From Burkholderiaceae bacterium (GTDB taxonomy: Bacteria > Pseudomonadota > Gammaproteobacteria > Burkholderiales > Burkholderiaceae_C), in NCBI GenBank assembly GCA_016790175.1, contig JAEUPI010000094.1:20967-84966 (forward strand): a DNA stretch of 64,000 bases, given 5' to 3'. Shown one piece after another: positions 47,299-61,051 of this stretch. Both the position numbers and the translations under genes were made by a program. Positions within the stretch are counted from its first letter, which is position 1. Each line of letters opens with the position of its first letter. The notes below the pieces were generated by a model. The model made no database searches, was not told where the DNA came from, and was given only the letters and a program-made list of their open reading frames with translations.

Positions 47299-48318
47299 AT
47301 GCCCGCCGCCGAGATCCGCGCCCCCGAACTGGTCTGCCCCGCCGGCTCGCTGCGGGCGCTGCAGCTGGCGGTCGACGCCGGTGCCGACGCGGTCTACGTC
47401 GGCCTGAAGAACGCCACCAACGCGCGCAACTTCGCCGGGCTGAACTTCGATGACGCGCAGCTGGCACGGGGCGTGGCCTATGCGCATGCGCGCGGCCGCA
47501 AGGTCTTCATGGCGCTGAACTCGTTCGCGCGCGCCGGCGCCGAGGCGCTGTGGTATCGAGCCGTCGACGCCGCGGCGAGGGCCGGCGCCGACGCGCTGAT
47601 CGTCGCCGACACCGCGGTGATGGCCTATGCGCGCGAGCGCCACCCCGCGTTGCGGCTGCACCTGTCGGTGCAGGCCTCGGCGACCAGCTACGAGGCGATC
47701 GACTTCTATCGCCGCCACTACGGCATCGAGCGCGCGGTGCTGCCGCGCGTGCTGACGCTGTCGCAGGTCGGCCACGTGCTGCGAAATACCACGATCGAGA
47801 TCGAGGTGTTCGCCTTCGGCAGCCTGTGCGTGATGGTCGAGGGACGCTGCACGCTGTCGTCGTATGCCACCGGCCAGTCGCCCAACAACGCGGGGGTGTG
47901 CTCGCCGCCGTCGGCCGTGCGCTGGACCGACACGCCGCAGGGCGTGGAGTCGCGCCTGAACGGCCTGCTGATCGACCGCTACGCGCCCAACGAGCCGCGT
48001 GGCTACCCCACGCTGTGCAAGGGCCGCTTCGAGGTCGACGGCCAGCGCGGTTATGCGCTGGAAGAGCCGACCAGCCTGAATTCGATGAGCATCCTGCCCG
48101 AGCTGATGCGCCTGGGCGTGCGCGGCCTGAAGATCGAGGGCCGCCAGCGCAGCCCCGCCTACGTCGAGCAGGTCACGCGCGTGTGGCGCCAGGCGATCGA
48201 CAGCGCGCACGCGCAGATCGAGCGCTTCGAGCCGCGCACCGAGTGGACCGCGGCGCTCGACCGCCTGGCTGAAGGCCAGCAGCACACGCTGGGCGCGTAT
48301 GACCGGCCCTGGCGCTGA
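47299..48318 (+). CDS. ubiU: UbiU, U32-peptidase-family Fe-S protein of O2-independent ubiquinone hydroxylation
   Basis: PELVCPAGSL..L..AVDAGADAVYVGL...; Cys cluster FGSLCVMVEGRCTLSSY...GVCSPP...TLCKGRF; followed by ubiV and ubiT. Confidence 0.85.
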   Translation: MPAAEIRAPELVCPAGSLRALQLAVDAGADAVYVGLKNATNARNFAGLNFDDAQLARGVAYAHARGRKVFMALNSFARAGAEALWYRAVDAAARAGADALIVADTAVMAYARERHPALRLHLSVQASATSYEAIDFYRRHYGIERAVLPRVLTLSQVGHVLRNTTIEIEVFAFGSLCVMVEGRCTLSSYATGQSPNNAGVCSPPSAVRWTDTPQGVESRLNGLLIDRYAPNEPRGYPTLCKGRFEVDGQRGYALEEPTSLNSMSILPELMRLGVRGLKIEGRQRSPAYVEQVTRVWRQAIDSAHAQIERFEPRTEWTAALDRLAEGQQHTLGAYDRPWR

Positions 48319-48322
48319 CGTC

Positions 48323-49285
48323 GTGAAGGAAGAACGCGCCTTCGCGCTGACCGTCGGCCCGGTGCTCGGCTACTGGTCGCGCCGCGCGCTGCACGACTTC
48401 TATGCCGACGTGGCCGACTCGTGCGTCGAGACGGTCGTGATCGGCGAGGTCGTCTGCGCGCGCCGGCGCGAGATGAAGCTCGACGACTGGCTGGCGCTGG
48501 GCGCCGAGCTGCGCAGCGCCGGCAAGGAGGTGGTGCTCGGCACCCAGGTCCTGATCGAATCGGAGTCCGACCTGCGTTTGCTGCGCCGCCAGGCCGGGCA
48601 GCGCGAGTTCCTGGTCGAGGCCGGCGACGCATCGGCGCTCAATGTGCTGGCCGGTGCCGGCGTGCCGTTCGTGCTGGGGCCCCACATCAACATCTACAGC
48701 GCCGCGGCGCTGCGCGAGCACCGGCGGCTCGGCGCGGTGCGCTGGGTCGCTCCGGCCGAGCTGCCGCTGGCCAGTCTGTCGCGGATCAACCCGCCAGCGC
48801 CCGATGACGGCGTCGCCGCGCACTTGCCGGACGACGGCGCCTGCTCGCCGGTGGCCACCGAAGTGCTCGCCTTCGGGCGGCTGCCGCTGGCGTTCTCGGC
48901 GCGCTGCTTCACGGCGCGGCACCACAAGCTGAGCAAGGACTCGTGCGACTTCCGCTGCGCCGACGATGCCGACGGGCTGCTGCTGTCGACCACCGACGGC
49001 ACGCCGTTCCTGGCGCTCAACGGGATCCAGACGCTGTCGGCGGCGCGTCATTGCCTCATCGGCGAGCGCGCGGCGCTGCAGGCGGCCGGCGTGACGCGGC
49101 TGCGCCTGTCGCCGTCGGCGGCGGGTTTCGCCGAGGTACTCGCCCTGTTCGACGCGGTGATGAACCACGACGCGCCGGCCGACATGGCGCGGCGCCGGCT
49201 CGAGGCGATGGCGTGGCCGGGCGGTCTTGCCAACGGATACGCCGGCGGCGGCGCGGGGCTGCAGTGGACGGGCGCGAGCGCATGA
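48323..49285 (+). CDS. ubiV: UbiV, U32-family partner of UbiU
   Basis: LTVGPVLGYWS...; Cys motif ARCFTARHHKLSKDSCDFRC. GTG at 48323 preferred; the ORF-track ATG at 48299 overlaps the ubiU end. Confidence 0.8.
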   Translation: MKEERAFALTVGPVLGYWSRRALHDFYADVADSCVETVVIGEVVCARRREMKLDDWLALGAELRSAGKEVVLGTQVLIESESDLRLLRRQAGQREFLVEAGDASALNVLAGAGVPFVLGPHINIYSAAALREHRRLGAVRWVAPAELPLASLSRINPPAPDDGVAAHLPDDGACSPVATEVLAFGRLPLAFSARCFTARHHKLSKDSCDFRCADDADGLLLSTTDGTPFLALNGIQTLSAARHCLIGERAALQAAGVTRLRLSPSAAGFAEVLALFDAVMNHDAPADMARRRLEAMAWPGGLANGYAGGGAGLQWTGASA

Positions 49286-49728
49286 GTCTGCTGCAGTGGC
49301 ACCAGCTCGCGGCCGTCTTCACCCGGCCGGTGCTGCAGCGCCTGCCGATGCGGCCACCGTCGCTGCTGCTGGCGCTGGCACTGAACCGCATGCTGCTGCC
49401 GCGGCTGCCGGCCGACGCCAAGGCGGCGCTAGCGGCACGGGCGGTCGAGGTCGCGCTCACCGACATGGGGATGACGCTGCGGCTGCGGTTGCAGCACGGC
49501 GGCTTCACGCCCGCGGCCGCGCACGAAAGCGTCGCCCTGCGCATTGCCGCGTCGCTGCCGACCTTCGTCCGCCTGGCCCGCGGCGACGACGACGCCGACC
49601 GCCTGTTCTTCGAGCGCGCGCTGGTGATGGAAGGTGACACCGAGTTCGCGCTGGTGCTGAAGAACACCCTCGATGCGATCGGGCCCCTCTTCACTCCCTC
49701 TCCCCTCCGGGGAGAGGCGACGGGGTAA
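49282..49728 (+). CDS. ubiT: UbiT, SCP2-domain lipid-binding accessory protein
   Basis: ATGA overlap with ubiV; ...DADRLFFERALVMEGDTEFALVLKNTLDAI SCP2 signature. The last ~12 codons run into a REP-like hairpin. Confidence 0.8.
   Translation: MSLLQWHQLAAVFTRPVLQRLPMRPPSLLLALALNRMLLPRLPADAKAALAARAVEVALTDMGMTLRLRLQHGGFTPAAAHESVALRIAASLPTFVRLARGDDDADRLFFERALVMEGDTEFALVLKNTLDAIGPLFTPSPLRGEATG
49697..49717. repeat. REP-like hairpin CCTCTCCCC-TCC-GGGGAGAGG followed by a G-rich tail
   Basis: 9-bp perfect stem at the ubiT 3' end, followed by GGGGTAAGGGGCGGGGGTCAGGGG. Confidence 0.5.
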
Positions 49729-50305: not shown

Positions 50306-50761
50306 TCAGCCCTCGAACACCTGACGTTGCCCGAACCCCTGCGCGTTGTCGATGAAGTACAGCCGCGCCAAGCGCAGCCGATACCAATGCACGCGCGCCA
50401 GCGCCTGGACGATCGCCGGCGCCGCCAGCGCCGGCCGCACGAACGGGAACTTCGCGCCGTACACCTGCTGCACGCGCACGCGTTCGTCGCCGTCGAGTTC
50501 GTCGACCCGTCCCTCGAGCTGAATGCCCTGGATGCTGCGCCAGTCGGCCACCTCCGACTGGATCGTCGCCGCGCAGCGCGCATCGAGCGCCAGGTTGCCG
50601 GCATGCCGGCTCGAAGGTGACGACAGGAAGATCAGATCGTCGCCGTCGCGCGCGAAGAACACCGCCGCCGCCCACGGCCCCTCGGCACCATGCGTGGCCA
50701 GCGTCATCACATGGTGATCGGCCAGGAACTGCGCCACCGGCGGCGGCAGCGCCAGCGTCAC
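50306..50761 (-). CDS. YhbP/UPF0306-like PNPOx-fold protein
   Basis: GTGA overlap with the activator stop; FLADHHVMTLATHGAEGPWAAAVFFA....LIFLSSPSSRHAGNL....CAATIQ.....IQGIQLEG. Confidence 0.65.
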   Translation of the reverse strand: MTLALPPPVAQFLADHHVMTLATHGAEGPWAAAVFFARDGDDLIFLSSPSSRHAGNLALDARCAATIQSEVADWRSIQGIQLEGRVDELDGDERVRVQQVYGAKFPFVRPALAAPAIVQALARVHWYRLRLARLYFIDNAQGFGQRQVFEG

Positions 50762-52485
50762 GGCGCCGGCCCGTCGATGCCGTCGTGCCCCTCGGCGTCG
50801 GCCGGCTCGTGCAGCCGCTTCAACCGGTACGCCAGCTGCGGCCGCCGCAGGCCCAGCATGCGCGATGCGGCCGACAGGTTGCCGTGCGCCTTGTCGACCG
50901 CCGTCTCGATCAGCATCGCCTCGACCTGGTCGAGCGTCATCACGCCGTTGAACACCGCCTCGCACAACTCCTTGCCCGCGGCCCAGCGGTGCAGGTCGAG
51001 GTTGCCGTCGCCGTCGAGGCCGAACTCGGCCGGCTGCACGTCGCCACAGCGCGTGAACAGGTGACTGACTTCGACGCTCGAGCCGTTCGGCGCGAGGATG
51101 ACGCCGCGCTCGACCATGTTCTGCAGCTCGCGGATGTTGCCCGGCCACGGGTAGGTGAGCAGCGCGCGCTTGGCCTTGTCGGTGAAGCCGCGCAGCTTCT
51201 TGCCGTGGATGGCCGAGTGCTTCTCGAGGAAGCGCTTGGCCAGCAGCGAGATGTCTTCCTTGCGCTCGCGCAGCGGCGGGATCTGGATCTGGAACGGGTT
51301 CAACCGGTAGTACAGGTCGGAGCGGAATCGACCCTCCTTCACCAGCCCCAGCAGCTCGGTGTTGCTGGCGGCGACGACGCGCACGTTGACGCGCCGCGTG
51401 CGGTGGTCGCCCAGGCGCTCGATCTCGCCTTCCTGCAGCACGCGCAGCAGCTTGCTCTGCGCCGTGAGCGGCAGGTCGCCGATCTCGTCGAGAAACAGCG
51501 TGCCGCCGTCGGCGCGCTCGAAGCGGCCCGGCCGCGCCGCCTGCGCGCCGGTGTAGGCGCCGCGCTCGACGCCGAACAGCTCCGACTCGACCAGCTCGTT
51601 CGGGATCGCCGCGCAGTTCACCGCAATGAACGGCTTGTCGCGCCGCGTGCCCATCGCGTGCAGCGCGCGCGCGAACAGCTCCTTGCCGGAGCCCGTCTCG
51701 CCCGACAGCAGCACCGTGATCTGGCTGCCGCCGGCCTGCCGCAGCAGCTCGAAGGCCTGCCGGAAGCCCGGTGAGGTGCCGATCATGTCTGCGGGCAGCT
51801 TCTGCTGCTCGCCGATGGTCGAGCGCAGCTGCACCACCTGGGTCTGCAGCTCGATCAGCTGCTCGGCGATCGGCTCGGGCCGGAAGAAGCGCTCGTGCTC
51901 GGCAGCGTCGTCCCACTCCTCGACCGGCTTGCCGATGATGCGGCAGTTGGGATGGCCCATGCCGACGCACTCGACCTCCTTGTAGAGGATCGGCCGCCCC
52001 ATGAAGGCCGAGGTGTACCCGCAGGCGTAGCCGATCTGCGTCCAGCACATCGGCTCGTCGTGCTGACCGTAGTGGCGACGGTGCCACTGGCCCTCCCACG
52101 AGTTCTCCCACAGGAACTCGCCGTAGAAGCGACCGGCCATGCGGTCGAGCTGCAGCTGCACCGGCGTGACGTGCACGATGCCTTCCAGCGTGTGCAGCTG
52201 CGGCCCGGTCATGAAGGCCTCGACGTCGCTGCTGTCCTGCGAGCGCGTGCGCGCCAGTTCGGCGTCGCGCAGCCCCGACGCGTAACCCATGCGCGTGAGG
52301 AGCCCGCGCGCGCGGTCCATACCGAGGGTGTCGATCAGCTCCTTGCGCAGCATCGCCTGCGCTTCGGCGTGCACCAGCAGCATGCGGTGCTCATGCAGCC
52401 AGATCTGGCCGGTCTCGGCGCAGAAGTGCACGCGCGCCCGCAGGTCGTCGCGGGTCGCGCGCGCAATGCTGTGGAGCTTGGCCAT
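50758..52485 (-). CDS. Sigma-54-dependent activator, XylR/DmpR type (XylR_N + V4R sensor, AAA+, Fis HTH)
   Basis: V4R-type CxxxxC region [16 protein letters not shown]...GHPNC; AAA+ [14 protein letters not shown]-like [13 protein letters not shown]; C-terminal [25 protein letters not shown]. Confidence 0.88.
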
Positions 52486-52608
52486 CGTGGCGCCCCTCCT
52501 GCGAAAGGTTGCTTCTAGGACGCGGCGGTCGTCGCCGGCTTGCGCGGCGTCAAGCCGTCCGGCATGAACGCCCGGGGTTGTCCCGGATACGGTGGCGGCG
52601 CACCGTAC

Positions 52609-52660
52609 TTCATCAAATCGTCGAATCGCCGCTTCATCGAGGCGCCGCCCTCATCAAAGC
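52609..52660 (+). promoter_or_regulatory. Candidate upstream activating sequences for the XylR-type activator
   Basis: TTCATCAAATC (52609-52619) and CTCATCAAAGC (52650-52660) resemble the TTGANCAAATC XylR-type half-site as I recall it. They lie 115-165 nt upstream of the -24 element. Confidence 0.35.
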
Positions 52661-52772
52661 ATCAAGTCGCGCGCGGCGCCTTTCGCACGCCCGCAGGGTC
52701 GGCGTGCGAAAGCCGCTTCCCCCTCTTCCACCAATGGGAGCAGGAGTCGCTCGTCGCCGGCGCAACGCAATC

Positions 52773-52787
52773 TGGCACGGCCTTTGC
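52773..52787 (+). promoter_or_regulatory. Sigma-54 (-24/-12) promoter TGGCAC-GGCCT-TTGC
   Basis: Exact TGGCAC-N5-TTGC spacing, ~80 nt upstream of the ATG at 52866, divergent from the sigma-54 activator gene. Confidence 0.8.
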
Positions 52788-52865
52788 GATTGATCCCCCG
52801 ATGCGCAGCGTCGCACGCCCGGCCCCGTTGCACAGCTTCGGTTCCCTCGACAAGGAGATACCCTC

Positions 52866-54701
52866 ATGAAGTTCCCGGTTCCGCACGACGTCAAAGCCCA
52901 GACCATTCCCGGCACCGAAGGCTGGGAGCGCATGTATCCGTACCAGTACCAGTTCGTCACCGACGACCCGGTGAGGAGCGGCTACGAGAAGGAGACCTTC
53001 TGGTTCTACGACGGGCTGCACTACCCCGAGCCGCTGTACCCGTTCGACACCATCTGGGACGAGGCCTGGTACCTGGCCCTCTCGCAGTTCAACAACCGCA
53101 TCTTCATGGTGCCGCCGGTGCGCGGCGTCGACCACCGCATCATCAACGGCTACGTCTACATCTCGCCGGTGCCGGTGAAGGACGGCAACGAGATCGGCAG
53201 CCGGGTCCCGCACTTCATGGAGCGCGCCGGCCACTACTACAAGAACTGGGACGCGCTCGAGGCCAAGTGGAAGGTGAAGATGGAAGCCACCATCCGCGAG
53301 TTGGAGGCGCTGCAGATCCCGCGCCTGGCCGACATGGAAGACCTGTCGGTGGTGACCGGCGCGCTCGGCGAATCGCACGGCTACCACCTGCTGAAGAACT
53401 ACGACGACCTGATCAACCTCGGCATCAAGTGCTGGCAGTACCACTTCGAGTTCCTGAACCTCGGCTACGCGGCCTACGTGTTCTTCCTCGATTTCGCGCA
53501 GAAGCTGTTCCCCAACATCCCGGCGCAGCGCGTGACGCAGATGATCTCGGGCATCGACGTCATCATGTACCAGCCCGACGAGGAGCTGAAGAAGCTGGCG
53601 CGGCTGGCGATCGAGCTGCGCGTCGATGAAGTGATCACCTTCAGCCCACAGTGGAGCGTGGTCGAGGAGGCGCTGAAGAAGCTGCCGCAGGGCGTGAAGT
53701 GGCTGACCTCGCTGAACCTGGCGCGCGAGCCCTGGTTCAACATCTCCACCGGCACCGGCTGGTTCCACCACGACCGCTCGTGGAACGACCAGATGAACGT
53801 GCCGCTGTCGGGCATCGCGACCTACATCCACAAGCTCAAGCAGGGTGTGTCGATCGACCGGCCCACCGACAAGGTGCGCGCCGAGCGCGACCGCATCACC
53901 GCCGAGTACCGCGCGCTGATCGACAAGCCCGAGGACCTGAAGCAGTTCGACGAGCTGCTCGGCTGCGCCAAGACCGTGTTCCCGTACGTCGAGAACCATC
54001 TCTTCTACGTCGAGCACTGGTTCCACTCGGTGTTCTGGAACAAGATGCGCGAGGTCGGCGCGATCATGAAGGAGCATGGCGTCATCGCCGACGTCGAGGA
54101 CGTCTGGCTGCTGCGCCGCGACGAGATCAAGTCGGCGCTGTGGGACATCGTCACCGCCTGGGCCACCGGCGTCACGCCACGCGGCACGCAGACCTGGCCC
54201 AGGGAGATCGAGTGGCGCAAGGGCGTGATGAGCAAGTTCAAGGAGTGGCACGCGCCGCCGGCGATCGGCACCGCGCCGGAAGTGATTCAAGAGCCCTTCA
54301 CGATCGTCTTGTGGGGCGTCACCAACAAGTCGCTCGCCGACTGGGCCTCGGTGCAGGAGGTGGCCGACCCCGAAACCATCACCGAGCTGAAGGGCTTCGC
54401 CGGCAGCCCCGGCATCATCGAAGGCCGCGCGCGGGTGTGCCGCACGGTCGGCGAAGTCGGCGACCTGCGCGAAGGCGAGATCCTGGTCGCGCCGACCACC
54501 TCGCCGTCGTGGGCACCGGCGTTCGCCAAGATCGGCGCCTGCATCACCGACGTCGGCGGCGTGATGAGCCATGCCGCGATCGTCTGCCGCGAGTACGGCA
54601 TGCCCGCGGTGGTGGGCACCGGCCACGCGACCAAGGTGATCCGCACCGGCATGATGCTGCGCGTCGACGGCTCGACCGGGGCGGTCAGCATCGCACGCTA
54701 G
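52866..54701 (+). CDS. Phenylphosphate synthase alpha-subunit-like PEP-utilising enzyme (611 aa)
   Basis: C-terminal swivelling His domain ...GSPGIIEGRARV...GEILVAPTTSPSWAPAF...ITDVGGVMSHAAIVCREYGMPAVVG. The size and the split from the ATP-grasp subunit are as in PpsA. Confidence 0.7.
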   Translation: MKFPVPHDVKAQTIPGTEGWERMYPYQYQFVTDDPVRSGYEKETFWFYDGLHYPEPLYPFDTIWDEAWYLALSQFNNRIFMVPPVRGVDHRIINGYVYISPVPVKDGNEIGSRVPHFMERAGHYYKNWDALEAKWKVKMEATIRELEALQIPRLADMEDLSVVTGALGESHGYHLLKNYDDLINLGIKCWQYHFEFLNLGYAAYVFFLDFAQKLFPNIPAQRVTQMISGIDVIMYQPDEELKKLARLAIELRVDEVITFSPQWSVVEEALKKLPQGVKWLTSLNLAREPWFNISTGTGWFHHDRSWNDQMNVPLSGIATYIHKLKQGVSIDRPTDKVRAERDRITAEYRALIDKPEDLKQFDELLGCAKTVFPYVENHLFYVEHWFHSVFWNKMREVGAIMKEHGVIADVEDVWLLRRDEIKSALWDIVTAWATGVTPRGTQTWPREIEWRKGVMSKFKEWHAPPAIGTAPEVIQEPFTIVLWGVTNKSLADWASVQEVADPETITELKGFAGSPGIIEGRARVCRTVGEVGDLREGEILVAPTTSPSWAPAFAKIGACITDVGGVMSHAAIVCREYGMPAVVGTGHATKVIRTGMMLRVDGSTGAVSIAR

Positions 54702-54716
54702 CCGAGGCCGGCGGCG

Positions 54717-55856
54717 ATGAGCAGCGTGCTGCAGCCGATGACCGGCCGCGTTGCGGCGGCGGCGTCCACCTGGGCGACGCCGCCGGCGGTGTGCTGGTTC
54801 GAGGATTGCCGCAAGGACTCGGTGCCGCTGGTCGGCGGCAAGTGCGCGTCGCTCGGCGAGCTGATCAATGCCGGCGTGCGCGTGCCGCCCGGCTTCGCGT
54901 TCACCACCGAGGGCTACCGGCGCTTCGTCGCCGACGCCGGGGTCGGCGCCGAGCTGCGCTCGCTGCTGCAGGGTATCGACCTGCGCGACCTCGACGCGCT
55001 GGAGGCGGCCAGCGCACGCATCCGCACGCTGATCGAGGCGCATTCCTTCAGCGCCGAGATCGAGGACGAGGTCGCCGAGTGCTACCGCAAGCTGTCGCTG
55101 CGCTGCGGGCTGCCGGCGGCACCCGTGGCAGTTCGCTCCAGCGCCACCGCCGAAGACCTGGCCGACGCCAGCTTCGCCGGCCAGCAGGACACCTACCTGT
55201 GGATCCGCGGCGTCGACGAGGTGCTGCACCACATACGCCGCTGCATCTCGAGCCTCTACACCGGCCGCGCGATCGCGTACCGCGCCAACAAGGGTTTCGC
55301 GGACACCGGTCTCGGCATCAGCGTCGGCGTGCAGAAGATGGCCAACGCCTACACCGCCGGCGTGATGTTCACCGTGCACCCGGCCAGCGGCGACCGCTCG
55401 GTGATCGTGATCGACTCGAATTTCGGCTTCGGCGAGTCGGTGGTGTCGGGCGAGGTCACGCCTGACCAGTTCGTCGTCAACAAGGTCACGCTCGACATCA
55501 TCGAACGCACGATTTCGCAGAAGCTGGTCTGCGTCACGGTCGACCCGAAGGCGCAGGCGGCGCGCACGATCGAGGTGCCGTTCGAGCGCCAGCGCGTGCA
55601 GTCGCTGATCGACGACGAGATCACCGAGCTGGCCTGGATGGGCAAGAAGATCGAGCAGCACTACGGCCGCGCGATGGACATCGAGTGGGCGGTCGACAAG
55701 GACCTGCCCGCCGGCGGCAACATCTTCATCCTGCAGGCGCGCCCCGAGACCGTGTGGAGCGCGCGCCAGCAAGCGGCCGCCGGCACCACGCCGCCCGCGC
55801 GCTCGGCAATGGACTACATCCTCTCGGCGATGCTCACCGGCAAGAAGGTCGGCTGA
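54717..55856 (+). CDS. Phenylphosphate synthase beta-subunit-like ATP-grasp (PEP synthase N-terminal) protein (379 aa)
   Basis: ...LVGGKCASLGELINAGVRVPPGFAFT...VAVRSSATAEDLADASFAGQQDTYL...MDIEWAVDKD...IFILQARPET. Confidence 0.7.
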   Translation: MSSVLQPMTGRVAAAASTWATPPAVCWFEDCRKDSVPLVGGKCASLGELINAGVRVPPGFAFTTEGYRRFVADAGVGAELRSLLQGIDLRDLDALEAASARIRTLIEAHSFSAEIEDEVAECYRKLSLRCGLPAAPVAVRSSATAEDLADASFAGQQDTYLWIRGVDEVLHHIRRCISSLYTGRAIAYRANKGFADTGLGISVGVQKMANAYTAGVMFTVHPASGDRSVIVIDSNFGFGESVVSGEVTPDQFVVNKVTLDIIERTISQKLVCVTVDPKAQAARTIEVPFERQRVQSLIDDEITELAWMGKKIEQHYGRAMDIEWAVDKDLPAGGNIFILQARPETVWSARQQAAAGTTPPARSAMDYILSAMLTGKKVG

Positions 55857-55914
55857 CGCCCGCCATTCCTCCCACCCCTCTTCCGAAACCAGCCTCAACC
55901 ACGGAGTGACATCT

Positions 55915-57429
55915 ATGAACGCCCGCAACGAAGTCCGCCCGATCGACGACCTGCGCAGCTACATCGCGGCGCTCGAGGCGCACGGACAACTGCACCGCGT
56001 GAAGACCGAGGTCGACTGGAAGTTCGAGCTGTGCCACGTGTCCAAGGTCAACGAGGAGCAGAAGGGCCCGGCGCTGATGTACGAGAACGTGAAGGGCTAC
56101 GACATCCCGGTGTTCACCAGCGCCTTCACCACGCCGCAGCGCCTGGCGATCGCGCTCGAGCAGGACGCGTCGCTGTCGATGAGCCAGCTGTCGAAGAAGT
56201 GGATGCAGCTGACCACCGCCAAACTGATCAAGCCGACCATCGTGAAGGACCCGCCGGTGATGGACAACCAGATCACAGGCGACGCGATCGACATCGAGAA
56301 GTTTCCGTCGCCGTGGTTCTACCCCGACGACGGCGGGCGCTTCTTCGTCACCGCGGGCTACCTGGTGACCCAGGACCCCGACACCGGCTGGACCAATCTC
56401 GGCACCTACCGCTCGCAGGTACTGGGCAAGAACATCCTCGGCTCGCAGATCATCAAGGGCAAGCACGGCGACATGCACATGAAGAAGTACGCCGAGCGCG
56501 GCGAGCTGATGCCCGCGGCGGCGGTGGTCGGCTGCGACCCGGTGCTGTTCCTCGCCGGCTCGACGCTGGTGAGCGCCGGCGTCGACGAATACGACATCGC
56601 CGGCTCGCTGCGCGGCCGCCCGGTGCCGGTGTTCAAGTCCGAGGTCACCGGGCTCACGCTGCCGGCCAACGCCGAGATCATCGCCGAGGGCTTCATCGAC
56701 CCGAACGAGCTGATGGATGAAGGCCCGTTCGGCGAATACACCGGCTACTACTCGGGCAACAAGGGCAAGGACTATCCGAAGCCGGTGCTGCGCATCAAGC
56801 GCATCCTGCATCGCCACAAGCCGGTGATGTGGGCGACCACGGTCGGCAAGCCGATCAACGACATCCACATGATCCAGTCGCTGAACCGCACCGCCACGCT
56901 GTGGTACGACCTCGAGACGATGAAGGTGCCGGGCATCCAGAGCGTGTACATACCGCCCGAGGCCTGCGGCCGCTTCTGGGTGGTGGTGTCGGTGAAGCAG
57001 ATGTACCCGGGGCACTCAAGCCACGTCGGCAATGCCGTGATCGCAAGCACCACCGGACACTACGGCGTCAAGGGCGTGATCACCGTCGACCACGACATCG
57101 AGGCCGACGACTGGGACCGCGTCTGGTGGGCGCTGGCCACGCGCTTCGATCCCAAGCGCTCGGCGCAGATCATCGACCGCGGCCGCTCGACGCCGCTCGA
57201 CCCCGGGCTGCCGATCGAGGCGCGCGAGATCACCAGCCGCATCATCCTCGACGCCTGCACGCCGTTCGAGTGGAAGAACAAGCCCAACGAGATCTTCATG
57301 GACCGCGCGGTGCTGCAGAAGGTGTCGGACCGGTGGAACGACTATGGCTTCGCCGGCGCCAGCCCGGTGGCGGGGATGATCAATCGCCTGACGAAGCCCG
57401 AGGCGCCCAAGAAGGCCAAATCACAGTAG
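55915..57429 (+). CDS. UbiD-family (prenyl-FMN-dependent) reversible decarboxylase/carboxylase
   Basis: RBS ggag + ATG at 55915; IDDLRSYIAALEAHGQLHRVKTEVDW.FEL..V...; GPFGEYTGYY motif; about 505 aa. Confidence 0.85.
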   Translation: MNARNEVRPIDDLRSYIAALEAHGQLHRVKTEVDWKFELCHVSKVNEEQKGPALMYENVKGYDIPVFTSAFTTPQRLAIALEQDASLSMSQLSKKWMQLTTAKLIKPTIVKDPPVMDNQITGDAIDIEKFPSPWFYPDDGGRFFVTAGYLVTQDPDTGWTNLGTYRSQVLGKNILGSQIIKGKHGDMHMKKYAERGELMPAAAVVGCDPVLFLAGSTLVSAGVDEYDIAGSLRGRPVPVFKSEVTGLTLPANAEIIAEGFIDPNELMDEGPFGEYTGYYSGNKGKDYPKPVLRIKRILHRHKPVMWATTVGKPINDIHMIQSLNRTATLWYDLETMKVPGIQSVYIPPEACGRFWVVVSVKQMYPGHSSHVGNAVIASTTGHYGVKGVITVDHDIEADDWDRVWWALATRFDPKRSAQIIDRGRSTPLDPGLPIEAREITSRIILDACTPFEWKNKPNEIFMDRAVLQKVSDRWNDYGFAGASPVAGMINRLTKPEAPKKAKSQ

Positions 57430-57457
57430 CCGCAGCACCTCGACGGGCGCGACGACC

Positions 57458-58702
57458 ATGGCACGCAAGGGCATCGTCATCATCTGCAACCTCGACACGC
57501 GCGGGGAGGACATCGTCTTCGTCAAGGAGCTGATCGCCGCGCGTGGCCACGAGCCGATCCTGCTCGACTTCAGCATGGAGGAGCCGCCGCCCTTTGCCGG
57601 CGACATCACGACCGAACAGGTGGCCGCGCGCGGCGGCATGACGATCGCAACCGTGCGCGAGAAGTACCGCAGCGACCGCGACGCCGCCTCGCAGAACCAG
57701 ATCCGCGGTGCGGCAGCCATCGTCGGCGAGCTGCACAAGGCCGGCCGCGTGCATGGTGTGATCGGCATCGGCGGCGGCACCTGCACACTGGTGGCGACCT
57801 CGGTGATGAAGCAGCTGCCGTTCGGGCTGCCCAAGCTGATGGCCTCGCCGATGGCGGCGCATCCGGCCTACATCGACGGCTACGTCGGCACGCGCGACAT
57901 CACGATGCACCACACGGTGCTCGACATCGTCAAGATGAACCCGCTGCTGCGCGCGCAGATCACCAACGCGGTCGGCGCCATCTGTGGCATGGTCGAGATG
58001 ACGCTCGGCACCGACTTCCGCTTCGACAAGCCATGCGTCGCGATCTCGTCGTTCAGCTTCGGCGAGATGGCGGTGCAGGCGGCGCTGCCGATGCTCGAGG
58101 AAGCCGGCTTCACGCCGATCGTCTGTCACGCGCAGGGCAAGGGCGACCGCGCGATGGAAGAGATGATCCGCGACGGCGCCTTCCAGGGCGTGATCGACCT
58201 CTGCATCGGCGGCGTGATGGAGAACCTGTACAAGGGCAACCGCGATCCGGGCCCGGACCGGCTGAAGGCCGCCGCCGCGGCCGGCATCCCGGCCGTGCTG
58301 GCACCGTGCGGGCTCGACATCCTGTCGTACGGCGGCCGTGCCGACATGCTGGAGAAGACCAAGGACCGGCCGCAGTTCGTGCAGGACGCGCTGCGCGTGC
58401 AGGTGCGCACCAGCGCCGACGAGCTGCGCGCCGCAGCCGACGTGATCGCCGAGCGGCTGAACGCGGCGCGCGGGCCGTGGACCTTCCTCGTGCCGCGCAA
58501 GGGCTGGTCGTCGCTCGACCGTGAGGGCCGGCCGATCTTCGATCCGCAGGCCGACGCGGCCTTCGTCACGCGGCTGCAGGAGCGACTCGACGATCCGTCG
58601 CACGTGCAGGAAGTCGACCTGCACCTGTACACGCCCGAGTTCGCCGGCGCTGCGGTCGCCGAGTTCGTGCGGCTGTTCGGCGCTACGCCCGCGCGGGCCT
58701 GA
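57458..58702 (+). CDS. UPF0261 / Tm-1-like ATP-binding family protein
   Basis: GIVIICNLDTRGEDIVFVKELIAARGHEPILLDFS... and ...VIGIGGGTCTLVATSVMKQLPFGLPKLM... Confidence 0.7.
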   Translation: MARKGIVIICNLDTRGEDIVFVKELIAARGHEPILLDFSMEEPPPFAGDITTEQVAARGGMTIATVREKYRSDRDAASQNQIRGAAAIVGELHKAGRVHGVIGIGGGTCTLVATSVMKQLPFGLPKLMASPMAAHPAYIDGYVGTRDITMHHTVLDIVKMNPLLRAQITNAVGAICGMVEMTLGTDFRFDKPCVAISSFSFGEMAVQAALPMLEEAGFTPIVCHAQGKGDRAMEEMIRDGAFQGVIDLCIGGVMENLYKGNRDPGPDRLKAAAAAGIPAVLAPCGLDILSYGGRADMLEKTKDRPQFVQDALRVQVRTSADELRAAADVIAERLNAARGPWTFLVPRKGWSSLDREGRPIFDPQADAAFVTRLQERLDDPSHVQEVDLHLYTPEFAGAAVAEFVRLFGATPARA

Positions 58703-58719
58703 CGGCAAGGGAGCGGACC

Positions 58720-59424
58720 ATGCTGGTGCGCGACTGGATGCAGGCCGACCCGATCACGATTGCCAGCGACACGCTGGTGTCGCAGGCCAAGCGTCTGCTC
58801 GCCGACCACAACCTGCACGCGCTGCCGGTGGTCGACGACGGGCGGTTGCGCGGCCTGGTCACGCGCGCCAACCTGCTGCGCATGGGCGCCTTCGTGCTGC
58901 GCACGCAGGACCCCGACGAGTTCAACTACTTCGTGACGCGGCTGCGGGTGCGCGATGTGATGGTGCGCCGGCCGGCGACGATCCAGGCCGGCGACACGAT
59001 GCAGCAGTGCCTGCGCCGCGGCCGCGAACTCGGCGTCGCGCAGTTTCCGGTGCTCGACGGCGAGCGTGTCGTCGGCGTGATCTCGGCCAACGAGATCTTC
59101 CAGATCGCCGCGCACTGCCTCGGCGCCTGGGAGCGCCGCAACGGGCTGACGATCGGGCCGGTGCGCCTCGAACCCGGCGTGATCGGACGCGTGGCCGAGG
59201 TCGCTGAGCGCGCGGGCGCGGTGCTGCAGGCGCTGTTTCCGGTGCTGGGTCGGCGCGACGCGCCGTGCAGCGACGGTTCATCGCCGTGCCGGCTCATCGT
59301 GTGCTTCGACGCGGGCGACGTCGGCGCGGTCGCGGCGGCGCTCGCCGCCGACGGCTTTCCGGTGATCGAGTCGATCGCCCCGGTGCCACCGGTCGCGGCG
59401 GCACGGATACCCCATCCGGCCTGA
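58720..59424 (+). CDS. Tandem-CBS-domain protein (PpsC-like stimulatory subunit?)
   Basis: Two CBS motifs (VRDWMQADPITIASDT...LHALPVVDDGRLRGLVT; VRDVMVRRPATIQAGD...QFPVLDGERVVGVISANEIF) plus a C-terminal ACT-like region. Confidence 0.7.
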   Translation: MLVRDWMQADPITIASDTLVSQAKRLLADHNLHALPVVDDGRLRGLVTRANLLRMGAFVLRTQDPDEFNYFVTRLRVRDVMVRRPATIQAGDTMQQCLRRGRELGVAQFPVLDGERVVGVISANEIFQIAAHCLGAWERRNGLTIGPVRLEPGVIGRVAEVAERAGAVLQALFPVLGRRDAPCSDGSSPCRLIVCFDAGDVGAVAAALAADGFPVIESIAPVPPVAAARIPHPA

Positions 59425-59434
59425 GGAACCGCTC

Positions 59435-60028
59435 ATGACCCTGCCCCTGATCGTCGCGATCACCGGCGCCACCGGCGTCATCTACGGCGTCGAGCTGCTG
59501 CGCGTGCTGAAGCAGCTCGGCCAGCCGACTCACCTGATCCTGAGCGAGGCCGCGGGGCTGAACCTGTCGATCGAGACCGACTACACGCTGGAGGACGTGC
59601 GCGCGCTGGCCGACGTGGTGTATCCGAACAAGGACGTCGGCGCCGCGCCGGCCAGCGGCTCGTTCCGCACCCGCGGCATGATCGTCGCGCCGTGCACGGT
59701 GAAGACGCTCTCCGCCATCGCCAACTCGTTCACCTACAACCTGGTGGTGCGCGCCGCCGACGTGCAGCTGAAAGAGGGCCGCAAGCTGGTGCTCCTCGTG
59801 CGCGAAACGCCGCTGCACAAGGGCCATCTGGAGCTGATGGCGCGCGCCGCCGACTGCGGCGCGACGCTGTTGCCGCCGATGCCGGCGTTCTACCACCGCC
59901 CGCAGACGATCATGGACCTGGTGCACCAGACGATCGGCAAAGCGCTCGATCAGGTCGGCATCGAGCATGACCTGTTCCGCCGCTGGAGCGGGCACGGCGG
60001 CGACGACAAGAAGGCGGCACCGCGCTGA
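59435..60028 (+). CDS. ubiX: UbiX-family flavin prenyltransferase
   Basis: LIVAITGATGVIYGVELLRVL..., ...GMIVAPCTVKTLSAIANSF..NL..RAADV.LKE.RKLVL..RETPL.... Confidence 0.88.
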   Translation: MTLPLIVAITGATGVIYGVELLRVLKQLGQPTHLILSEAAGLNLSIETDYTLEDVRALADVVYPNKDVGAAPASGSFRTRGMIVAPCTVKTLSAIANSFTYNLVVRAADVQLKEGRKLVLLVRETPLHKGHLELMARAADCGATLLPPMPAFYHRPQTIMDLVHQTIGKALDQVGIEHDLFRRWSGHGGDDKKAAPR

Positions 60029-60243
60029 CGCGCTTACCGTCGCGCACCAATGCAGACGGGCGATGCGACGGCCGCCGTGCTGGCGCCGAACGCCAAGCGG
60101 CGTTCGCTGGTTCGACTAACCGGTGAACGTGCTGCGCGGCGGTGACCTCACTGGCCTGACCGTCACGCACCGCTGAGCCGCCGTCGCCGCGTGCTGCGGC
60201 CGGCGCCCCGACTGAACGAGGACACGAGCCGGGCCTGCAAATT

Positions 60244-60729
60244 CTATCTGGGAGTTGACGTGCACGACCGCCCGGAAGAGGTGCTTCGAGTGTTCTTGAC
60301 GGCTTTCGACGACGTGGATGACGACGTGCAGGGTGCACCCGAGCTGCTGGTCGAGGACTGCGACGAGGACGAGCCCGATGTGCTGCGGCTGCCGCCTTGC
60401 GACGTTCCGGTTCCGGTGCGCGAACTGCTCGACGACGTCTTCTTGGTCACCAGGGGTTCGATGCGCGGCAACCCGCTGCGCGTCTCGTACGTGTCGGTGT
60501 AGGGGTTGTAGTACTCGAAGTCGCCATTGCTCTGCCCGCTTCGACACGATGCCTGGAACGGCCGCACGGCGCTGTCGGTGCTGCCGTCCTCTTTGGTCGT
60601 ATAGACGGTGACCGTGCATGTTGACCCACTGCCGGAAGTGGCACCAGCGGCGAGAAGCGGCACCGGCGCAGTCCACAGCGCCATGGCGACACCGAGCGTC
60701 CCTGCAGATGAGTGCGATGCGATCTTCAT
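60244..60729 (-). CDS. Small exported protein with Ser/Thr-rich C-terminal tail (161 aa; 3' half uncertain)
   Basis: Strong RBS aaggaga + ATG at 60729; signal peptide MKIASHSSAGTLGVAMALWTAPVPLLAAG; preceded by repeat-type promoter site 3. The C-terminal 70 aa are low-complexity S/T and an acidic ORF lies antisense. Confidence 0.5.
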   Translation of the reverse strand: MKIASHSSAGTLGVAMALWTAPVPLLAAGATSGSGSTCTVTVYTTKEDGSTDSAVRPFQASCRSGQSNGDFEYYNPYTDTYETRSGLPRIEPLVTKKTSSSSSRTGTGTSQGGSRSTSGSSSSQSSTSSSGAPCTSSSTSSKAVKNTRSTSSGRSCTSTPR

Positions 60730-60795
60730 CGAGACTTCTCCTTTTCAGCGAATCGGCTGCTGCTTCCGGCTCGCGGCGACGGCCACCGAAATTCG

Positions 60796-60830
60796 ATGCT
60801 AGGCCGTAGGCGTTTGTCGAGCGTTTGTCG
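60796..60830 (-). promoter_or_regulatory. Promoter with tandem 11-bp direct repeats (site 3): CGACAAACGCT-CGACAAACGCC-N7-TAGCAT
   Basis: Repeats at 60809-60830 (units identical except for one base); -10-like TAGCAT at 60796-60801; 67 nt upstream of the ATG at 60729. Confidence 0.6.
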
Positions 60831-61051
60831 CAGGGGCACGCCCTGCAGGACTGCGGCATCGACCACCTGGGTGACGACCGCGAGCGCCTGCGCCAGCGCT
60901 ATGCGCCGGCGGCGCATCCGATGGCCGTCGAGGTCGTGCGTTGGCTGGAGGGCGCCGACGCCGTGGACAGCTGGGTCGAGGAGGCGTGATCGACTCACCG
61001 ACCCTTCGTCGATGCTCGCGCCGGGCCGCGGCCCGGGTGTGCGTCAGTCAG

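Follow-up and report, generated by a model that had tools for sequence, protein, structure and literature searches.

How does an operon that encodes one UbiD-family carboxylase subunit carry phenol through an oxygen-independent carboxylation? Textbooks cover anaerobic phenol degradation, but the pathway is understood only with the four-subunit carboxylase of Thauera. We analyzed a 64,000-nucleotide stretch of DNA (the window; G+C content approximately 70%) from a Burkholderiaceae bacterium (GCA_016790175.1, contig JAEUPI010000094.1, positions 20,967 to 84,966; C190 in our contig numbering), in which genes for a phenylphosphate synthase, a single UbiD, a UPF0261 protein, a CBS-pair protein, and UbiX follow one another downstream of a divergent sigma-54 activator. 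The genome is a metagenome-assembled genome (MAG) of 3.93 Mb in 283 contigs and is 82% complete. At the level of the operon, the sequence evidence makes it very likely that the locus serves the oxygen-independent activation of phenol, as a phenol-inducible operon of the Geobacter single-carboxylase type. The full explanation, a phenol operon working by the mechanism proposed below, is probable, with less assurance than the operon-level reading.

An earlier note on this DNA had described 7 open reading frames (ORFs), and all 7 were recovered with the same boundaries and a strong family match for each (Table 1). Its description of a UPF0261 gene between UbiD and the CBS gene, with UbiX last and a divergent XylR-type sigma-54 activator, agreed with both the coordinates and the domains. 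The 6 genes on the forward strand are separated by gaps of 10-49 nt. A scan of 1 genome per species identified a PpsA relative in 569 species, and the locus comparison covered the 80 closest of these (85-97% identity), with Burkholderiaceae and Ramlibacter MAGs carrying the nearest relatives of the locus. The gene order of the operon was found again in 44 of the 80 loci, so the arrangement is not due to chance. Metagenomes of activated sludge, wastewater, and rivers, from 8 or more studies, contained near-identical DNA.

The phenylphosphate synthase genes bear most directly on the substrate. Along its entire length of 611 residues, the window PpsA shares 87% identity with its counterpart from a locus of the canonical Thauera layout (type C, below) that encodes the full PpcB/PpcD/PpcA set, and both proteins belong to the NF006152 equivalog, the type C protein scoring 1237 bits and the window protein 1218 bits, both over the cut-off of 723. 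The window PpsA has the phospho-histidine (PEP-utilizers) mobile domain and carries the His motif ...GGVMSHAAIVCREYG.... PpsB is 69-89% identical to its counterparts in related loci and about 70% identical to those in canonical loci, and the CBS protein is full length and colinear with the PpsC of a type C locus, with 55% identity over 220 residues. Judged by these matches, PpsA, PpsB, and PpsC are orthologues of the Thauera-type phenylphosphate synthase subunits, which bears out the earlier likening of this trio to that enzyme. The genome also encodes 4-hydroxybenzoyl-CoA reductase subunit alpha (HcrA, 1258 bits), subunit B of class I benzoyl-CoA reductase (BcrB, 776 bits), and PobA, and in the isolate Ramlibacter lithotrophicus RBP-1 the bcr and hcr genes flank the operon on the same contig. 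Given the PpsA and PpsC identities, the shared equivalog, a regulator 70-77% identical to those of canonical loci, and the Hcr, Bcr, and PobA genes, a route from phenol through phenylphosphate and 4-hydroxybenzoate to benzoyl-CoA is by far the best reading of the predicted functions.

The suggestion that the operon serves a different phenolic or heteroaromatic substrate was not upheld by the same PpsA, equivalog, and regulator results together with the Hcr and Bcr genes. An aromatic substrate other than phenol (a cresol, catechol, hydroquinone, or aniline, for example) is very unlikely, although Desulfatiglans anilini uses Pps-like and UbiD pairs for aniline. The PpsA proteins of distant UPF0261-linked loci are only about 40% identical and fall under the NF006152 cut-off; the family as a whole may therefore cover several substrates. 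The window PpsA, in contrast, shares the canonical equivalog; the sensor of the regulator is close to its canonical counterparts, the UbiD passes the PpcB model, and 4-hydroxybenzoyl-CoA reductase is encoded in the genome.

We identified 3 architectures among the 80 loci. Type A (44 loci, including the window and loci from Ramlibacter, Rubrivivax, Ideonella, and others) has the regulator divergent from ppsA-ppsB-ubiD-UPF0261-CBS-ubiX. Type B (8 loci, from Rhodoferax and Polaromonas: L069:13034-18155, L047, L052, L053, L059, L062, L064, and L070) encodes a UbiD 88-91% identical to that of the window, with the slot after UbiD taken by an aryl-CoA/DHB-AMP-ligase-like gene in place of UPF0261 and with a calcineurin-like metallophosphoesterase after ubiX in all 8 loci. 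Type C (14 loci, mostly labelled Rhodocyclaceae or Rhodocyclales) has the canonical Thauera layout, with PpcB, PpcD, and PpcA each far over its equivalog cut-off, along with a further (ORF7-type) UbiD, UbiX, and then riboflavin-kinase-like, Nudix, and PPOX-class genes. The other 14 loci are truncated. In some type A loci, add-on genes stand directly after ubiX, including DUF2390 (16 loci), metallophosphoesterase (9), and HAD_2 hydrolase (6) genes (for example, L010:17017-17565, L029:17531-18187, and L011:13873 onward). None of these was found in the window or was detectable elsewhere in the 82%-complete genome, so the window carries the minimal form of type A.

The UbiD of the operon stands alone. 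Only 2 UbiD genes were identified in the genome, the operon copy and 1 on contig C222, and no second catabolic UbiD was found in the operon or the rest of the 82%-complete assembly; on the PpcA (alpha) model the window UbiD scored 194 bits against a cut-off of 565. No PpcD (delta, HAD-type, TIGR02726) above cut-off was identified in the genome, the best match being a KdsC-like protein on another contig with 103 bits against 282. The gamma model (TIGR02725) had no match in the genome, a weak negative because it was silent in all control genomes too. The description of a single UbiD with no delta subunit was thus confirmed by the 2 UbiD genes and the lack of an above-cut-off PpcD, and the alternative that missing subunits are encoded just outside the operon found no backing, with neither PpcA nor delta in the operon or in the assembled genome. 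Among 5 related genomes, 4 (including that of R. lithotrophicus RBP-1) encoded only the housekeeping and operon UbiD proteins, and the fifth had 2 further UbiD-family genes; PpcD above cut-off was found in none of the 5, with KdsC-like matches only.

In a quick maximum-likelihood tree of UbiD proteins, with support from the Shimodaira-Hasegawa-like approximate likelihood-ratio test (SH-aLRT), all PpcB-like proteins formed 1 clade (99%) that excluded PpcA and the ORF7-type UbiD. The sequence meant to serve as a housekeeping UbiD outgroup came from an incorrectly extracted ORF and is to be disregarded. The phylogeny, which had been proposed as a check, placed the window UbiD inside the PpcB family, grouped with type A, type B, Georgfuchsia toluolica, and Rhodoplanes sequences (100%), and canonical PpcB formed a long branch among single-type sequences from deltaproteobacteria and Syntrophorhabdaceae. 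An even draw of 400 genomes from the same order yielded 3 more single-type UbiDs and 1 canonical one, too few for statistics.

The N, core, and C domains of the window UbiD were all matched, and the protein aligned over its full length with PhdA (7PDA; E 8e-82). Its NLGTYR, GKHGD, DEYD, and EGPFGEYTGY motifs align with those of PhdA and Escherichia coli UbiD, and the single-type UbiDs all retain the NxGxYR, His, EY Glu, and EGPFGE positions in the same alignment. We take these positions to be the Asn/His/Glu ligands of the metal and of the prenylated flavin mononucleotide (prFMN) phosphate and the Glu-Arg-Glu catalytic motif of Fdc1/UbiD. In canonical PpcB, Arg replaces the ligand His and Asp-Phe replaces Glu-Tyr, and PpcA lacks the His (for example, L060:13832-17371 and other type C loci). 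We infer that the lone UbiD is an ordinary prFMN enzyme with nothing missing, and the Thauera heteromer may be the derived form.

The UPF0261 gene is a conserved companion of this UbiD. It stands immediately after UbiD in all 44 type A loci, is absent from all 14 type C loci, and never occurs together with PpcA/PpcD in the loci compared. Among representatives clustered at 50% identity, the nearest UPF0261 proteins outside the operon clade were 51% and 44% identical, with others at most 41%. A metagenome scan with the 51% relative (P0241) as query recovered 46 loci, with GC contents of 39-66% in the 6 that were measured. All of those with enough upstream DNA carried ppsA-like, ppsB-like, UbiD, UPF0261, PAC_bac or CBS, and UbiX genes, with PpsA 35-66% and UbiD 49-66% identical, and UPF0261 stood directly after UbiD in about 25 of these distant loci. 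The same order in loci so divergent indicates, on gene order and identity, that the pairing of UbiD with UPF0261 is ancient and spans phyla. In 26 of the 46 metagenome loci, the low-GC versions, a small PAC_bac gene (PF21758, "proteasome assembly chaperone-like") lies between UPF0261 and UbiX (for example, L095:9230-9640 and L125:9295-9705), and an IclR regulator, a PaaK-type ligase, and a HAD hydrolase were seen near loci of this kind.

The genome encodes 3 UPF0261 paralogues, and the operon copy has no adjacent TIM-barrel partner. The other 2 are located at G000:C167:20681-21208 (-) and G000:C12:1185-3234; one of them adjoins a classical PF09370 TIM-barrel gene and the other shares a contig with pobA and a CoA-ligase-like gene.

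The first UPF0261 activity was described in 2025, when MarK was found to phosphorylate a phenolic hydroxyl with ATP, forming ADP (PMC12624787). MarK is the sole characterized relative, so ATP-dependent phosphorylation of a phenolic hydroxyl is the one known activity of the family, and its H219 is the His that binds the phenol oxygen (PMC12624787). The window protein aligns with MarK (PDB 9MPY) over its full length (E 6.5e-49), its D13-T14-R15 with D14-T15-K16 of MarK and its H224 with H219. Across 79 operon-linked UPF0261 proteins, D13, T14, and H224 are invariant, Arg stands in for the Lys in 77, and Gly occupies the position of G195 in 76. The literature search returned nothing linking UPF0261 to UbiD or to phenylphosphate.

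From these observations we propose a mechanism in 4 steps. A phenol-bound XylR-type activator would switch on the sigma-54 promoter; PpsA, PpsB, and PpsC, by orthology to the Thauera enzyme, would then turn phenol plus ATP into phenylphosphate, AMP, and Pi. The single PpcB-like UbiD, a putative homo-oligomer carrying prFMN made by UbiX, would para-carboxylate the ring to yield 4-hydroxybenzoate, which would enter the pathway through 4-hydroxybenzoyl-CoA reductase and benzoyl-CoA reductase, whose genes lie elsewhere in the genome. Beside the lone UbiD, UPF0261 would act at the carboxylation step as a phosphotransferase on the phenolic oxygen of the intermediate, removing or handling the phosphoryl group and so supplying what PpcA, gamma, and delta give in Thauera. 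Its assignment to this step follows from its fixed place after UbiD, its exclusion from loci with PpcA/PpcD, and the constant phosphoesterase of type B; we hold this phosphoryl-handling role tentatively, as a possibility that falls somewhat short of an even chance. The idea of a mechanistic variant dependent on UPF0261, raised in the earlier note, may hold. Slightly more doubtful is the general form of the proposal, in which UPF0261, as an ATP/ADP-binding phosphotransferase, is the missing component of the single-PpcB carboxylase in Geobacter, Desulfatiglans-like, and Burkholderiales systems alike. There it would take the phosphoryl group off phenylphosphate and deliver phenolate to a homomeric prFMN-UbiD in place of PpcA, gamma, and delta, and the type B metallophosphoesterase would be a third, independent solution. 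A variant in which UPF0261 regenerates ATP from phenylphosphate during carboxylation was also considered and down-weighted on rough energetic reasoning, because the energy of phenylphosphate is probably insufficient to drive ATP synthesis and carboxylation together.

The MarK activity also admits a role with no link to the carboxylase, in which UPF0261 is a second phenol kinase, forming ADP at the cost of 1 ATP equivalent in parallel to the AMP-forming PpsABC. MarK forms ADP on a phenolic hydroxyl, many genomes have both MarK-like and two-subunit kinases, and the nucleotide-site and His residues are conserved in the operon proteins. We nevertheless consider this unlikely. The UPF0261 gene always adjoins UbiD and not ppsAB, and it is absent from canonical clusters, where a cheaper kinase would bring an equal gain. 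The UPF0261-linked loci that reach far enough upstream also encode PpsA and PpsB, so UPF0261 is no replacement for PpsAB. MarK, moreover, favors substrates with aldehyde or ketone side chains according to a figure title; phenol was one of the compounds assayed (PMC12624787).

Distinctly less probable again is a part for UPF0261 in cofactor supply, together with UbiX and the PNPOx-like protein encoded beyond the regulator, whether in the synthesis of dimethylallyl monophosphate or FMN or in the loading or maturation of prFMN without O2. The position of the gene between UbiD and UbiX fits such a role, as do the riboflavin-kinase-like, Nudix, and PPOX-class genes that follow ubiX in canonical loci without UPF0261, and the small PAC_bac protein that separates UPF0261 from UbiX in distant loci. 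However, the one known UPF0261 activity is on a phenolic hydroxyl, and the His of the phenol oxygen is invariant in the clade; type B loci have the same UbiD and UbiX but no operon-type UPF0261, and among the loci compared the operon-type UPF0261 occurs only in Pps-type operons.

Several observations weigh against a phenol operon in which UPF0261 serves the carboxylase. To our knowledge, there is no biochemistry for any member of the UbiD or UPF0261 clades of the window. The type B UbiD occurs without an operon-type UPF0261 in the 5 genomes searched, 3 of which have only a paralogue 30-31% identical and 2 nothing, so UPF0261 is not indispensable to this UbiD. The canonical loci are 1 lineage, and the mutual exclusion of UPF0261 and PpcA/PpcD may therefore trace back to one event in evolution. 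The completeness of the MAG is only 82%. RNA-library contigs identical to the operon (50500-61000), from 3 activated-sludge libraries of at least 2 studies, span every gene junction, including ubiD/UPF0261, UPF0261/CBS, and CBS/ubiX; because the intergenic promoter and the flanks are covered as well, the contigs are no evidence of transcription or of induction and are uninformative on the operon. Finally, MarK residues G195, H219, and H304 are conserved in >90% of MarK homologues (PMC12624787), and of this aromatic-site set the window UPF0261 keeps only the equivalent of H219, having Ser at Gly195 and nothing aligned to His304; it also has Leu at the position of MarK His348.

The regulator, divergent from the ppsA operon, combines an XylR_N and V4R sensor with an AAA+ domain and a Fis-type helix-turn-helix; it scored 613 bits on the MobR-type phenol-regulator model, under the 999-bit cut-off of that model. 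Across related loci, the regulators are 70-93% identical to it. The sequence TGGCAC-N5-TTGC, 79 nt before the ppsA ATG, is its sole match in the 64-kb window (0.2 expected), and 28 of the 44 type A and 11 of the 14 type C loci carry the motif 78-123 nt upstream of ppsA. An additional ORF, outside the coordinates of the earlier note, encodes the PNPOx-like protein, and its GTG start overlaps the TGA of the regulator gene (GTGA). By this overlap, the gene is translationally coupled to the end of the regulator gene. A homologue adjoins the regulator gene in 39 of 44 type A, 7 of 8 type B, and 13 of 14 type C loci. We know of no described role for this gene at phenol loci; the protein is probably, as a weak suggestion, a supply or maturation factor for flavin or prFMN under anoxic conditions. 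The ORFs at 47299-49728 lie about 0.6 kb from the PNPOx-like gene. A functional link between them and the operon was rejected, as nothing corresponding to them was found among the 80 related loci, and the adjacency looks accidental.

Table 1. Genes and promoter of the phenol-activation locus, with positions in the window and supporting matches
Feature	Coordinates	Strand	Evidence
PNPOx-like FMN-binding protein, 151 aa	50306..50761	-	PF01243, 46.6 bits vs cut-off 28.1
XylR/DmpR-type sigma-54 activator, 575 aa	50758..52485	-	XylR_N + V4R + Sigma54_activat + HTH_8
Putative sigma-54 (-24/-12) promoter, TGGCAC-N5-TTGC	52773..52787	+	Motif match
ppsA, phenylphosphate synthase alpha, 611 aa	52866..54701	+	PF00391; NF006152, 1218 bits vs 723
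ppsB, phenylphosphate synthase beta, ATP-binding, 379 aa	54717..55856	+	PF01326 PPDK_N, 383 bits
Single UbiD-family carboxylase, PpcB-like, 507 aa	55906..57429	+	TIGR02724 phenyl_P_beta, 576 bits vs 469
UPF0261 (Tm-1-like ATP-binding; MarK family), 414 aa	57458..58702	+	PF06792, 169 bits; PF23189, 220 bits
ppsC, CBS-pair stimulatory subunit, 234 aa	58720..59424	+	PF00571, two stretches
ubiX, flavin prenyltransferase, 197 aa	59435..60028	+	NF004685, 239 bits vs 188; TIGR00421, 234 bits

The question of how a single PpcB carboxylates dates from the Geobacter (2009) and Desulfatiglans (2018) studies, and the locus makes it directly testable. Wastewater and freshwater Burkholderiales commonly have the single-UbiD form, whose UbiD resembles a normal prFMN enzyme and is accompanied across phyla by a conserved UPF0261 gene. 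Cultured hosts for genetics exist in R. lithotrophicus RBP-1 and G. metallireducens. Current annotation leaves the 2 proteins unlinked, as "phenylphosphate carboxylase subunit beta" and "Tm-1-like ATP-binding domain-containing protein," and a result would improve it. The interest is moderate, with nothing to astonish a specialist.

The closest known system is that of Geobacter metallireducens GS-15, in which Gmet_2099-2105 has the same order and sizes as the window locus, with a single ppcB, an ORF of about 415 aa, a CBS gene, and ubiX. The published table lists Gmet_2099 as a Fis-family regulator, Gmet_2100 with Thauera PpsA as best match, Gmet_2101 as a dikinase, Gmet_2102 as a carboxylyase-related protein of 514 aa with Thauera PpcB as best match, Gmet_2103 as a "hypothetical protein" (1257 bp, 418 aa), Gmet_2104 as a CBS protein of 146 aa, and Gmet_2105 as UbiX-like (Butler et al. 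2007, PMC1924859 additional file 1). Gmet_2103 is equated with the window UPF0261 by size and position only. The phenol cluster of G. metallireducens has a PpcB homologue only, with no alpha, gamma, or delta subunit (Schleinitz et al. 2009 as cited in PMC6114531). Since type A shares this order, the architecture is already known, and the window locus is an addition to the Geobacter-type single-PpcB phenol operons. The label "non-canonical" given to it in the earlier note holds against the Thauera layout and fails against Gmet_2099-2105, an order published in 2007-2009. The 2 systems differ in host, a facultative Burkholderiales member from sludge versus a strict iron reducer, and in the CBS protein, full length with 234 aa in the window versus 146 aa in Geobacter.

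Single-PpcB clusters have been tied to phenol growth in both G. metallireducens and D. anilini (PMC6114531). Like the window, the "phe" cluster of D. anilini has 1 PpcB-type UbiD, ppsA/ppsB, and UbiX, and there is no gamma homologue in the D. anilini genome (PMC6114531, PMC7500099), an absence that its authors read as a sign of a different catalytic mechanism (PMC6114531). However, a phenol-induced DHB-AMP-ligase-like gene adjoins ppcB there, which resembles type B and not the window. D. anilini also recruits second UbiD-like proteins encoded elsewhere, and the 2 papers mention no UPF0261 in the "phe" cluster (PMC6114531, PMC7500099).

With PpsABC/PpcABCD of Thauera aromatica, the window shares PpsABC orthologues, a PpcB-family UbiD, UbiX, and a XylR-type sigma-54 regulator and promoter. 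Unlike Thauera, it has UPF0261, and PpcA and delta were not found in the 82%-complete genome; it also lacks the ORF7-type UbiD and the riboflavin-kinase-like, Nudix, and PPOX-class genes after ubiX, and its UbiD keeps the His and Glu ligands where canonical PpcB has Arg and Asp. The UPF0261 protein resembles MarK (Saro_1862, Novosphingobium aromaticivorans) in its 2 domains, the lack of a TIM-barrel partner, the D-T-K/R motif, the His of the phenolic oxygen, and its place in an aromatic-catabolic operon, although it is no closer to MarK than to generic UPF0261 proteins (30-41% identical). The partners of MarK are a biotin-dependent carboxylase and a phosphatase of the acetovanillone pathway, whereas those of the window protein are PpsABC, UbiD, and UbiX. 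The window UbiD shares the NxGxYR, His, EY, and EGPFGE motifs and a UbiX partner with PhdA (7PDA), E. coli UbiD (2IDB/5M1B), and Fdc1. Unlike the proven prFMN-dependent UbiD decarboxylases, it is expected to carboxylate, and to do so on an aryl phosphate rather than a free acid.

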